A DNA stretch of 64,000 nt from an uncultured bacterium (lineage in GTDB: Bacteria; Planctomycetota; UBA1135; GCA-002686595), in contig CALSNU010000003.1 in the NCBI GenBank assembly GCA_943787795.1, forward strand, positions 64,001 to 128,000. The letters are read 5' to 3'. Below, piece after piece: positions 58,001 to 61,000 of the stretch (positions within the stretch are counted from its first letter, which is position 1; every line of letters begins with the position of its first letter). The position numbers are program-made.

Positions 58001-61000
58001 ACCGCCAGGATGAGCTGCGGGCTGAGGCTGTCGCTGGCGAGGTTCGAGATGCCGGAGGCGACGACGTCGTCGAGGCCAACCTTCTGGAAGGCGCCCCCAA
58101 GGGAGAGCATGCCACCCACGAGCGCGATGACCTTGAAGTCGATCACCCGAGGCACCTCGTCGGGGCGGATCACCCTGGTGAGCACCAGGACCATGGCGCC
58201 GGCGAGCCCGAGGATGGCGAGGGGCTGATCCGTGAGGGCGGCGCCGAGGAGCACCGCGAGGAGCGTGAGGATCACGATCCAGGACTGGCTGCTCGCGACA
58301 GGGGCCTGGACCTCGTCCAGGGTCAGCACCTGGCGCTCCTGGCGGGCGCGGTCGATGTCGCGCAGGTGGCCCTGGACGAGCAGGGTGTCCCCGATCTCGA
58401 GCGGTAGGTCCTGCAATCGGCTCAGCTGGATCTCTCCGTGGCGAGACATGGCGAGGACGTTCAGGCCCGTCCGGGTCCGGAAGGCAGCCGAGGCCAGGGT
58501 CTGGCCGACGTAGAGGGAGCCGGCGGGCACCACAGCCTCCACGAGCCGCACGTCGTCGGAGTACAGGCGGGAGTCGCCCGCCTCCACGGATTGGCGTTGC
58601 TGAAGCGGGAGCACCTCCGAGAGGCGAAGGAGGTCGTCCGGGGAGCCCTGGAGGATGAGCGTGTCGTCCGCTCGGATCCGGTTGTAGGGGCCAGGGGCCA
58701 GGACAGGCCGCTCGCCGGTGCCGCGCACGATGCCGAGCACGGTCACGTTGAACCGGCTGAAGACGTCGACGTCGGCGACGTTCCGGTTGATCAGCTCGCT
58801 GGTAGGCTCCACCAGGACCTCCGTCACGAACTTCGGGACCTGGTAGCGATCCGAGAGGGTCTCCTCCACGTCGGAGCGCGGGAGCAACCAGCGCCCGGGG
58901 CCCACGAAGTACAGCACCGTAACGAGCAGCAGCAGGAGCCCGAGGTGGCTGAACTCGAAGAGCCCGAACGGGCCGCAGGGCTCGTTCTTCAGGATCTCGT
59001 TGATGGCGATGTTGGTGGAGGTGGCGACGACAGTCACCAGCCCGCCGACCAGGCTCCCGAACGCGAGCGGGAGGAGGAGCCTGGAGAGGGGGACCCGCAG
59101 CCGGTGGCTGACGGAGTTCGCCACCGGGATGAGGGTGGCCACGACCCCGGTGTTGGAGAGCACTGAGGAGAGCAGACCGGAGACGGCGGTGACCCGGAGC
59201 ACGACACCGGGCTCCCGGCCCGGGTGAGCGGGCCCAGCGCCCAGCACACGGCGTCCCATGCCCTCAGCGAGCCCGCTCTTCGTGAAGGCGTGCCCGAACA
59301 TGTACATGGCGGCGATCAGCACCACAGCCGACGAGGAGAAGCCGTCGAACCCCTCTTCAACGTCGAGGACGCCGGTCAGCACGAGGGCCACGACGACCGC
59401 GAGGGCCGTGACCTCGAACCGGACGGCGTCCGTGACGAAGAGGATCAGACTCCCCGCCAGGATCGCGAGGACGATGGACTGGTCGTCGAAATTGGGCATG
59501 ACGTGACCACGGAGGCTCCCGCCTTCCTCCAGGTGCTTTGGGTGGAGATGACCCCGCCGACTCCCTCAGGAGGCATGCCGGGCCAGGTCAGCGGGCGCGC
59601 GCCGTGCCTGCGCGTCCACCTCTAGTAGTCTAGCGGGCTTCATCGATCGACGCCCGTGAGCTATAAGGGAACGCCGCTGACGTACCCTCTGGCAGCTCTC
59701 TCCCGCACGGACCCACCCCTTGGCCTATTCACCGATCGATCCCCAGGCGCTCGCCCGCCGCACCGGCTCCTGGCTCAGCAGCGAGGGGCCGGAGTCCGAT
59801 GTGGTGGTGTCCAGCCGCGTGCGTCTCGCTCGAAACGTCGAGGGAGCGCCATTCATGTCGCGGATCTCGGGCGAACAGGCCGAGGAGCTCAGCCAGACGC
59901 TCCGCGGAGCGCTGGTCGAGGCCAGCATCGACGGGGAGACGCGCTGGGTCACCATGACCGAGGCGCCCGCGGTGCTCCGTCTCCTGCTGCTGGAGCGCAA
60001 CCTCATCAGCCGGGACCTCCTGCCCCGGGACGAGCACTCCTCGGCCCCGGGAAGGGCCATGGCCTTCGGAGAGTCTGAGACGGTCTCCGTCATGGTGAAC
60101 GAGGAGGACCACGTCCGCCTGCAGGCTATGGCTGCGGGCCTCGACCTCGAGCTCGCCTGGGAGCGCGCCGAGGCTCTCGATCGCTTCCTGGAGGACCGGG
60201 TGCCCTTCGCCACCTCGGACCGGCTGGGCTACCTGACGGGCTGCCCGACCAACGTGGGGACAGGGCTCCGCGCCTCGGTGATGCTGCACCTCCCGGCGCT
60301 CGGGATGGTTCGCCAGGAGCTCGACAAGGTCTTCGCCGCCGCCCAGCGCACCGGGCTCGCGGTGCGCGGCATGCATGGCGAGGGCAGCCGCGCCGCCGGC
60401 GACCTCTACCAGATCAGCAACCAGGTGACCCTGGGACGAAGTGAGGCCGAGCTGATCGGCGATCTGCGGGCGCTCGTGCCAGAGATCGTTCGCTTCGAGC
60501 GGCGCATGCGGGACGCGCTGGTGAGCGAGATGCGTCAGGCGCTCGTCGATCGCATCGCGCAGTCCTTCGGGACCCTGCGCACCTCGCGGGCCATGCCCAC
60601 CGAGGCCGCGCTTGCGCACCTCTCCTCCGTCCGCCTCGGCCTGCACACGGGGATCTTTGGCGGCGCCCGCATGGAGACGCTCAACGAGCTGGCGCTGCAT
60701 GTTCAGCGAGGTCACATCCAGATCCTCGCCTCCACAGGCGATGCCGAGGACCTCCTGGACACCTCCGAGCGAGACAAGCTGAGGGCGAGCTACCTGCGCC
60801 AGCGCCTCGCGGGCGTGAAGCCGTCTGGAACGGACGACGCGCCCGCAGGGTAGAGGACCCTGCGGACGCGCCGTTAGAGTGGGGCGGAGGCTCAGTCCTC
60901 GAACTCGTCGAAGGACGGACGGTCCGAGGGGATCTCGAACTCCTCGACCTCGCCGAAGCTCATGCGGAGGGTGCCGTCCTTCTCGATGATGGCTACCGAT

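Follow-up and report, generated by a model that had tools for sequence, protein, structure and literature searches.

We identified in a 64,000-nucleotide stretch of a planctomycete genome (hereafter the window, C3:64001-128000) a gene, mcsB, that likely encodes the writer of a protein-tagging system based on phosphorylated arginine (pArg) and composed of McsB, McsA, ClpC-ClpP and a fused YwlE. What is established is that the genes are present, which motifs and domains their products carry, how the genes are ordered and how far they spread among lineages; from this, we infer each of the enzymatic steps. McsB would phosphorylate arginine side chains on damaged or selected proteins and would be activated by the two-zinc-finger McsA, encoded beside clpC. 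The tag would be captured by two pArg pockets in the N-terminal domain of ClpC, which would unfold the tagged protein into ClpP, and it would be erased by a YwlE-type domain located at the C-terminus of the sole predicted TsaC (t6A) enzyme. The planctomycete system is a real variant of the known one, typical of its lineage and probably functional.

Identification of mcsB

The mcsB gene, predicted to encode a protein-arginine kinase, is located at positions 59720..60853 of the window (+ strand) and corresponds to an ORF of 377 amino acids with a TTG start. This start is supported by two close relatives, L017 (80% identity) and L018 (83% identity), whose McsB alignments start at residue 1. An earlier note on this DNA gave the right start and end for the gene, but its coordinate offset of 96000 was wrong, the true offset between the window and contig C3 being 64000. 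A Pfam search detected PF00217 (ATP-gua_Ptrans) on residues 59-262 (E = 1.3e-58), and McsB is the sole match to this domain in the assembly. Residues 16-363 align with McsB proteins of solved structure (6fh1, E = 9.8e-77; 8wtb, E = 2.3e-76; 6tv6, E = 2.4e-76). With these matches at about 1e-76, the key motifs and a single copy in the assembly, homology identifies window 59720-60853 as coding for a full-length McsB orthologue, as the earlier note had claimed. The Pfam McsB_C match listed in the same note was not reproduced, no match to this domain being obtained at E <= 0.01 in the Pfam copy searched.

The protein has high scores against two NCBIfam protein-arginine kinase equivalogs, which are nevertheless under the curated cut-offs (NF002194, 358.3 bits for a cut-off of 385; NF053707, 342.1 bits for a cut-off of 500). 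These cut-offs are a database threshold tuned on Firmicutes and not a biochemical feature. The gene is apparently monocistronic, and no promoter or terminator consensus was found around it by a consensus scan. A long ORF antisense to mcsB (882 amino acids, 59729-62377, - strand) was rejected as a gene, as it is the product of a frameshift.

Partner genes and gene order

The ClpC, McsA and Sua5/LMWPc-fusion loci reported previously were all recovered at the positions given below, with the domains attributed to them. The mcsA gene (C1:654435-654995) adjoins clpC, and its product gives a full-length match with 8wtb_B (E = 1.7e-22). The four cysteine pairs and the UVR motif already described for this protein are indeed there: CxxC pairs at Cys 3/6, 37/40, 81/84 and 99/102, in two zinc-coordination domains, are followed by a coiled-coil/UVR region (UVR Pfam match, E = 9e-07). 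C81, C84, C99 and C102 share their numbering with the Z2 cysteines of Bacillus subtilis McsA. The score of McsA against its NCBIfam equivalog (NF053706, 115 bits) is also under the curated cut-off of 210.

The clpC gene (C1:651322-653856) encodes a protein of 844 amino acids that matches B. subtilis ClpC over its full length in one stretch, with 1003 bits (the best full-length match) vs. 716 bits for ClpB. Its architecture comprises two Clp_N domains, AAA, UVR (short M-domain type), AAA_2 and D2-small, with two Walker A/B pairs. An LGF loop, which we take to be the ClpP-docking loop, lies at residues 686-688, and the genome contains one clpP match. The N-terminal domain matches the pArg-bound structure 5hbn (E = 4e-48). 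Although the residues of the pArg pocket are kept (T6, E31 and E107, corresponding to T7, E32 and E106), they do not discriminate for a pArg system, since they are also conserved in Actinobacteria devoid of McsB (PMC9604228).

The separation of mcsB (C3) from mcsA-clpC (C1) that had been pointed out for this genome is confirmed, and it is shared by all four relatives of the same family. No remnant of mcsB was found between mcsA and clpC of this genome. The mcsA-mcsB-clpC genes are contiguous in four of the five other planctomycete families checked (G169, G119, G012 and G017). We also considered the best 80 loci from a McsB-alignment scan of genome contigs, all of them planctomycete-like: mcsA lies directly upstream of mcsB (<400 bp) in 58 of these loci, and the three genes are contiguous in 10. 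Since many other planctomycetes keep this contiguous order, the lone mcsB is explained by a rearrangement specific to the family, and the split of mcsB from mcsA-clpC is thus local to it.

Distribution in the Planctomycetota

A McsB match was found in 191 of the 201 sampled Planctomycetota genomes (~95%), including 125 of the 128 high-quality ones, and PF00217 scored above its cut-off in 143 out of 151 sampled genomes. Among 14 named control genomes, B. subtilis alone matched McsB/PF00217. These values exceed the prevalence of 85% advanced in the earlier note. The same note proposed a core pathway of the phylum. The near-universal McsB agrees with this proposal, but catalytically degenerate copies and lineages with no YwlE-like match call for some qualification of it. 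In families f20 (4/4 genomes) and f23, McsB is devoid of both the catalytic Cys and the NEEDH motif and nevertheless sits in a conserved mcsA-mcsB-clpC operon. Several planctomycete lineages gave no YwlE-like match with the query used; this is the case for G169 (100% complete), in which mcsA-mcsB-clpC is present.

A predicted YwlE-type phosphatase domain fused to a predicted TsaC

A single ORF (C3:447478-448584) carries a Sua5_yciO_yrdC domain (residues 26-200, E = 7e-36) followed by a LMWPc domain (residues 216-356), with the P-loop CTGNTCRS at 219-226. The domain search returned it as the sole Sua5-family match in the assembly, in line with the single Sua5 gene fused to a YwlE-type domain of the earlier note. 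Over its first 212 residues, the protein aligns with the YrdC-like catalytic domain (E = 2e-20; Foldseek, 8e-16), with PTETVYG and S145-A-N147 conserved. K-x-R and S-x-N are presumably the conserved active-site motifs of TsaC/Sua5; the first one reads K60-G-S62 here, with Ser for Arg and an Arg66 four residues on, and KGR is found in most relatives.

For the LMWPc domain, the best PDB matches are of the YwlE type (4egs, 9e-25; B. subtilis YwlE, 1.6e-23; Geobacillus stearothermophilus YwlE, 1e-21), whereas pTyr LMW-PTPs reach only 3e-14 or weaker in the same PDB sequence search. C219, T223, R225 and D335 of the fusion correspond to C7, T11, R13 and D118 of YwlE, general-acid Asp included; the roles of these P-loop and general-acid residues are given in 10.64898/2026.01.13.697720 and PMC7772506. 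An AlphaFold model of the fusion was obtained with a pLDDT of 93.2 and a pTM of 0.88, and its C-domain could be superposed on the YwlE structure 4kk3 with an rmsd of 1.6 Å. When the whole model is superposed on Sua5, the N-domain alone aligns (TM ~0.5, rmsd 10-19 Å), so a placement of the LMWPc domain like that of the SUA5 domain is unsupported.

Whether relatives share the fusion had been left open in the earlier note; we found it in ~143 of the 201 sampled Planctomycetota genomes (~70%; hand count) and in all 120 best database matches. Position 5 of the P-loop is Thr in 119 of these 120 matches, a figure skewed to close relatives, since the exact CTGNTCR coding pattern occurs in just 74 of the 201 genomes (4 matches for the reversed control). 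In 40 further fused genes, this position is Ser (21), Thr (13), Ile/Leu/Met (4) or Arg (2). The fusion is present in 4 out of 10 McsB-negative genomes vs. ~139 out of 191 McsB-positive ones, a comparison that ignores kinship and in which the negatives are partly incomplete assemblies.

The fused domain may not be a pArg eraser at all. It could be a plain pTyr phosphatase, or it could belong to the t6A enzyme as a structural or regulatory module at the place of SUA5, its linkage to tsaC being a mere trace of an old neighbourhood. Separate but adjacent tsaC and LMW-PTP genes in G017 and G103 point in this direction, as do ywlC and ywlE, which are near neighbours in B. subtilis. The ywlC gene is the tsaC of this species (PMC10221552). 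Moreover, position 5 varies and is Ile (G024 and G158), Met (G006) or Leu (G133) in four genomes despite an intact McsB, and the pArg and pTyr activities of Staphylococcus aureus PtpA and PtpB overlap, according to a preprint (10.64898/2026.01.13.697720). We nevertheless consider this explanation unlikely. Thr223 is found here as in nearly all of the best database matches, and the domain resembles YwlE more closely, in both sequence and fold, than it does pTyr LMW-PTPs. The only other LMWPc gene of the assembly is of the ArsC type (CGHNAGRS) and lies beside a MIP channel, leaving no other non-ArsC candidate. In addition, G017 and G103, the two genomes in which a dead kinase occurs along with a phosphatase linked to tsaC, carry Ile or Leu at this P-loop position. 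A co-variation between dead McsB and a non-Thr position 5 was rejected because of the four counterexamples with an intact McsB; this correlation, which has exceptions and could stem from just one or two events, was dropped as evidence.

If the fused domain is a pArg eraser, its attachment to TsaC might itself carry information. TsaD of B. subtilis is among the proteins tagged with pArg; ClpCP degrades it, and YwlE protects it (PMC7546277). The TsaC::YwlE fusion might then be a Rosetta-stone tie of pArg signalling to the t6A machinery and, together with the Lys clamp described below, might reveal an ancestral PVC-wide, differently regulated system and not a borrowed Firmicute module. This idea is tentative, and we give it a low probability. 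The phosphatase domain would in that case act at the t6A enzymes and keep TsaC or TsaD from being tagged by McsB and degraded by ClpCP, and translation fidelity would be coupled to proteotoxic stress.

Catalytic and regulatory residues of McsB

The NEEDH motif (residues 127-131, 60098..60112, + strand) aligns to NEEDH of the solved McsB proteins; the motif is named in PMC11046695. The predicted catalytic Cys175 (60242..60244, + strand), in CPTNVGTGLRAS, aligns with C167 of B. subtilis McsB, which is the catalytic cysteine according to PMC11046695. These residues and the nucleotide-binding domain are kept in a protein with 41-47% identity to active enzymes. Cys175 was also found in 93 out of 93 other planctomycete McsBs checked, a count that is biased, since 80 of these sequences were chosen with a pattern spanning the NEEDH region.

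The degenerate McsB kept in a conserved operon by families f20 and f23 indicates that a non-catalytic role exists in the phylum. McsB could thus mainly be a kinase-independent adaptor or activator of ClpC, its arginine phosphorylation being minor or lost. For the window McsB, however, this is quite improbable: the NEEDH motif, Cys175 and the nucleotide-binding domain are in place, Cys175 recurs in the other planctomycete McsBs despite the selection bias, and a predicted pArg-type phosphatase is encoded in the genome. A role as a phosphagen (free arginine) kinase for energy buffering is far less probable still. Although the ATP:guanido phosphotransferase catalytic domain matches arginine, taurocyamine and creatine kinases, these align with residues ~20-265 only, whereas McsB proteins align up to residue 363 and thus also cover the dimerisation domain, where the pArg pocket lies. 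The Pfam search gave PF00217 as the sole match and did not detect the N-terminal domain of phosphagen kinases. Moreover, the McsA partner is present and the operon of relatives provides a link to clpC.

With McsB read as the writer of the pArg tag, two further sites concern its regulation. A predicted pArg receptor, R351-D352-K-L-R355 (60770..60784, + strand), lies in the C-terminal dimerisation domain and corresponds to R337/D338/R341 of B. subtilis McsB, while T294 replaces S285, a further residue of the receptor site as defined in PMC8370763. Nearly all of the 93 planctomycete McsBs retain R351 and R355, and the D352 position is Asn in 66 of them. The second site is Lys203 (60326..60328, + strand), which stands opposite the Arg of INRII in both HMMER alignments to solved McsB. 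It thus takes the place of Arg194, the octamer clamp of B. subtilis McsB, as a natural R194K. Among the 93 sequences, this position is occupied by Lys (86), Arg (4), Gln (2) or Ala (1). In B. subtilis, pArg194 is the auto-phosphorylated clamp that locks McsB as a gated octamer, and the R194K variant has a deletion-like phenotype under heat shock (PMC8370763). With Lys at the clamp position and a receptor pocket that is kept, the control of the oligomeric state of planctomycete McsB probably differs from that of Bacillus.

Regulators and predicted role

We searched the assembly (84.9% complete) for the regulators associated with this system. As in the earlier note, CtsR was not found: PF05848 gave no match in the assembly, while the B. 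subtilis and Lactococcus controls matched, and no CtsR box was detected at up to 1 mismatch. HrcA and CIRCE were not found in it either. The best-known pArg regulatory targets are thus missing here, and the system would most likely act in the selective turnover of proteins and in their quality control at large, and not in the de-repression of a heat-shock regulon.

Several observations run against the reading of these genes as a pArg tagging system, namely the NCBIfam scores of McsB and McsA under the cut-offs, the regulators not found, the unlinked mcsB, Lys203, the pocket residues of ClpC that do not discriminate, the degenerate McsB of families f20 and f23, the lack of a YwlE-like match in G169 and the variation at position 5 of the phosphatase P-loop.

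Comparison with known systems

The pArg tag is treated as Gram-positive; PMC11046695 adds some Proteobacteria and rare archaea, where, according to that text, activity was never shown. Among the papers that our searches returned, we found no description of McsB in Planctomycetes or of the TsaC-YwlE fusion. A diderm phylum in which ~95% of the sampled genomes have McsB, often in a mcsA-mcsB-clpC operon, gives a wider picture of this tag. Its natural variants, i.e. Lys at the clamp position, CtsR and HrcA not found and the eraser-TsaC fusion, are testable handles on kinase regulation and on the purpose of the tag, and cultured planctomycetes make direct tests possible.

The predicted system resembles that of B. 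subtilis, G. stearothermophilus and S. aureus by its four orthologous proteins, in which the published catalytic and binding residues are kept, and by the mcsA-mcsB-clpC order retained in many planctomycetes. It differs from the Firmicute system in that CtsR and HrcA were not found here, mcsB stands apart from mcsA-clpC in this family, the Arg194 clamp is replaced by Lys, YwlE is fused to TsaC and the host is diderm; it is known here from sequence. The fusion has the same YrdC-like N-terminal domain as the Sua5/TsaC2 synthases (Pyrococcus abyssi 6f87/6f89, Sulfolobus tokodaii 2eqa and Thermotoga maritima 9dsv), but a LMW-PTP/YwlE domain takes the place of their C-terminal SUA5 domain, and Ser62 that of the Arg in K-x-R.

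Within the PVC group, PMC10128030 provides a precedent with ClpC, McsA and McsB of Chlamydia trachomatis, where the kinase genes are also apart from clpC and where ClpCP2P1 degraded only arginine-phosphorylated casein. In the same text, mcsA and mcsB lie together with clpC apart, whereas mcsA is here with clpC and mcsB apart. Its authors suggest a horizontal acquisition of mcsAB in Chlamydia. With McsB near-universal in Planctomycetota, the chlamydial McsAB pair might instead be explained by vertical descent within the PVC group.

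The mcsB gene and its surroundings

The window spans C3:64001-128000. Its mcsB gene lies at window positions 59720-60853 on the forward strand, exactly where the earlier note had placed it, except that the offset to contig positions is 64000 and not the 96000 to be subtracted there. The ORF is 377 aa long and begins with TTG, a start supported by close relatives, which align from residue 1 (80-83% identity). The sole Pfam match of the product is ATP-gua_Ptrans (E 1.3e-58, residues 59-262); the McsB_C match previously reported for it was not reproduced at E<=0.01 in the Pfam copy used. 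Its best NCBIfam families are protein-arginine-kinase equivalogs, with scores below the curated cut-offs (358 vs 385 and 342 vs 500 bits). Solved McsB structures match over residues 16-363 (6fh1, E 9.8e-77; 8wtb, 2.3e-76; 6tv6, 2.4e-76), and in the solved-structure comparison phosphagen kinases align to the catalytic part only. Moreover, the translation contains the NEEDH motif (residues 127-131) and, within CPTNVGTG, the catalytic cysteine Cys175, which corresponds to C167; both features are named for McsB in the available part of PMC11046695. No other PF00217 gene is present in the assembly (4.71 Mb, 8 contigs, 70% G+C, 84.9% complete). The gene encodes a genuine McsB orthologue, part of a phospho-arginine (pArg) system that appears to be complete.

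In the window, mcsB stands alone. A divergent CitMHS/TrkA-C transporter gene is located upstream (57694-59499, reverse strand), and a scan around mcsB for promoter and terminator consensus sequences gave nothing. An 882-aa ORF antisense to it (59729-62377, reverse strand) was rejected as an artefact: it results from a frameshift near 61085-61110 in a convergent secreted-protein gene on the reverse strand, which starts at 62377 and has its true stop at 60892-60894. In 5 of the 6 closest relatives (L017, L018, L020-L022; no match in locus L019) this gene follows mcsB on the same strand, so in the window genome it is inverted. About 7 kb upstream of mcsB is an arginase-family gene (51523-52446, forward strand), and between the two are a zf-HC2 anti-sigma-like gene (54843-56615) and an ECF-type sigma factor gene (56612-57271), both on the reverse strand.

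Partner proteins and the TsaC-YwlE fusion

The ClpC and McsA announced outside the window are both present, with matches to B. subtilis ClpC and to 8wtb_B. ClpC (C1:651322-653856, 844 aa) carries two Clp_N domains, AAA, UVR, AAA_2 and D2-small; B. subtilis ClpC aligns to it in one full-length stretch with 1003 bits, vs 716 for ClpB. Its N-domain (the first 153 residues) matches that of M. tuberculosis ClpC1 (E 1.7e-52) and that of B. subtilis in the pArg-bound structure 5hbn (E 4e-48), and retains T6, E31 and E107, the counterparts of T7, E32 and E106 of the two ClpC pArg pockets (PMC12583610, available part). Since these pocket residues are likewise conserved in Actinobacteria without McsB (PMC9604228, in part), they are necessary but not discriminating. 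McsA, encoded 578 bp upstream of clpC, comprises 186 aa counted from ATG, matches 8wtb_B over its full length (E 1.7e-22) and has Cys pairs at 3/6, 37/40, 81/84 and 99/102, of which the last four cysteines share their numbering with B. subtilis Z2 (PMC11046695). One clpP match was found in the assembly (C6:429411).

The phosphatase forms the C-terminal half of a TsaC-YwlE fusion of 368 aa (C3:447478-448584; reverse strand of its locus L002, 5479-6585). As described before, Sua5_yciO_yrdC (26-200) and LMWPc (216-356) share one ORF with a CTGNTCRS P-loop (219-226), and no other Sua5-family gene was found in the assembly. The P-loop and the general acid D335 correspond to C7, T11, R13 and D118 of YwlE (preprint 10.64898/2026.01.13.697720; PMC7772506; both in part). 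The best PDB sequence matches of this half are YwlE-type (9e-25 to 1e-21), vs 3e-14 or weaker for pTyr LMW-PTPs. In an AlphaFold2 model built from an alignment of 23 sequences (pLDDT 93.2, pTM 0.88), the C-domain superposes on YwlE 4kk3 (TM 0.84, rmsd 1.6 A) and the N-domain on Sua5/TsaC2. The only other LMWPc gene of the assembly is ArsC-type (CGHNAGRS; C2:230125-230550, L005:1468-1893); with the MIP-family channel gene directly after it, it forms a probable arsenic-resistance pair.

In the TsaC half, PTETVYG and S-A-N are intact. The position of the Arg of K-x-R, which we take to be a TsaC/Sua5 motif, is occupied by Ser62 (KGS), with Arg66 four residues on (ETRP; residues 60-67), and most relatives have KGR. 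Among relatives, KGS tends to pair with a downstream R-P that KGR sequences mostly lack, and this pairing may represent a compensatory shift. The fusion gene is divergent from genes for a histidine kinase and an NtrC-type sigma-54 response regulator (L002:6651-8910, forward strand). None of prfA, prmC and rpiB, presumably the neighbours in the B. subtilis ywl region, was seen at this locus. In B. subtilis, YwlE protects TsaD, which is a pArg target (PMC7546277, available part); this lends the fusion a possible functional meaning.

Distribution and gene order in Planctomycetota

In a phylum sample of 201 genomes evenly drawn from Planctomycetota, the window genome included, 191 matched the McsB protein at E<=1e-5 (125 of the 128 high-quality ones). 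With PF00217, 143 genomes out of 151, a draw from the same phylum sample, were above the cut-off, and B. subtilis was the sole match among 14 named control genomes. The fusion protein found matches in 192/201 genomes. Whether relatives share the fusion had been left open: it is common among them, with one match across both domains in at least 143 of the 201 genomes (hand count among 150 matches listed; 5 of the 143 are partial at contig ends). The best 120 database matches to the fusion all combine PF01300 and PF01451; the named ones are mostly Planctomycetota MAGs, with one annotated YwlE in isolate Poly30. An McsB 83% identical to that of the window is carried by JBLIHL010000222.1 (L018), a record titled 'Paracoccaceae bacterium' MAG. 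As the phylum sample centred on its genome is the Planctomycetota sample, this title looks like a mislabel or the product of a mixed bin.

Of 5 genomes of other families, 4 have mcsA, mcsB and clpC side by side (G169, G119, G012, G017), and in the fifth (G043) all three genes are apart. In the window genome mcsB (C3) is not in one operon with mcsA-clpC (C1), as noted earlier, and the same holds for 4/4 relatives of its family, where mcsA adjoins clpC and mcsB is on a separate contig; no mcsB remnant was found between mcsA and clpC in this arrangement. Among the best 80 related loci, mcsA lies <400 bp upstream of mcsB in 58 and 500-1100 bp upstream in 12; the locus lacks mcsA in 8, among them the 6 closest relatives, and 2 leave no room to tell. 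In addition, clpC directly follows mcsB in 10 of these 80. Thus, the Firmicute order minus ctsR is widespread in Planctomycetota, and standing alone is a derived condition of mcsB in the window's family.

Variation among planctomycete systems

In families f20 (4/4 genomes) and f23 (1 genome), McsB has no catalytic Cys, and NEEDH is replaced by NGIDH, NSDDH, NASDH, NLLDH or NHHDH (L011 in G017; L149-L152 in G103, G078, G052 and G020). These genes keep mcsA as a flanking gene and, in f20, clpC too; their products look like natural pseudokinases retained in their operon.

The phosphatase also varies. With the phosphatase domain as query, no YwlE-like match was found in G169 (100% complete, with contiguous mcsA-mcsB-clpC at L007), and G131 and G135 gave ArsC-like matches only. 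An unfused CTGNTCRS gene is present in G012 and a CAGNICRS gene beside tsaC in G017. Sequence that codes exactly for C-T-G-N-T-C-R was found in 74/201 genomes (4 matches for the reversed control). In 40 further fused genes, fetched in score order from genomes lacking this pattern, P-loop position 5 is Ser (21), Thr (13), Ile/Leu/Met (4) or Arg (2). An apparent link between a dead kinase and Ile or Leu in the phosphatase was set aside as anecdotal, because McsB is intact in all four genomes whose position 5 is hydrophobic. In both genomes of f57 (G064, G089), McsB reads CEEDH in place of NEEDH (L164, L165), and the fifth P-loop residue of the fused phosphatase is Arg (CSGNRCRS / CSANRCRS; L128, L135).

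Proposed mechanism and comparison with known systems

We consider it probable, reasoning from homology at every enzymatic step, that McsA would activate McsB, which would put pArg on proteins; the ClpC N-domain would read the mark, ClpCP would degrade the marked protein and the TsaC-fused YwlE domain would erase pArg. A search of the 84.9% complete assembly bore out the reported lack of CtsR, and found neither HrcA, nor CIRCE at <=4 mismatches, nor a CtsR box at <=1 mismatch. With CtsR and HrcA not found, the likely role of the system is quality control and selective turnover.

In the literature searched, we found no relevant treatment of McsB together with Planctomycetes, no paper linking McsB to 'Gram-negative' and 'phylogenetic distribution', and no description of a TsaC-YwlE fusion; the planctomycete system is annotated in databases but goes undiscussed in that literature. 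According to the available part of PMC11046695, some Proteobacteria and, rarely, archaea have McsB homologues, whose activity there has never been identified. In Chlamydia, ClpCP degrades pArg-casein and mcsAB is unlinked, with horizontal acquisition suggested by the authors (PMC10128030, in part).

The planctomycete McsB system is a lineage-typical variant of the known one. The pArg receptor site in the C-terminal domain of B. subtilis McsB (R337, D338, R341, S285; PMC8370763) aligns with R351, D352, R355 and T294 of the window protein. In B. subtilis, auto-phosphorylation of Arg194 provides the phosphate that clamps a gated octamer; R194K loses the octamer, with heat sensitivity at deletion level (same source, available part). 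This clamp is one published feature that the window McsB appears not to keep, with Lys203 opposite Arg194 in both HMMER alignments, an equivalence by alignment alone. In 93 planctomycete McsBs (the best 80 related loci and 13 fetched), the position aligned with Arg194 holds Lys (86), Arg (4), Gln (2) or Ala (1); nearby, R198, equivalent to R190, is Arg in 48/93 and Lys in 23/93. Given lysine at the clamp position together with an intact receptor pocket, oligomeric gating probably differs from that in B. subtilis.
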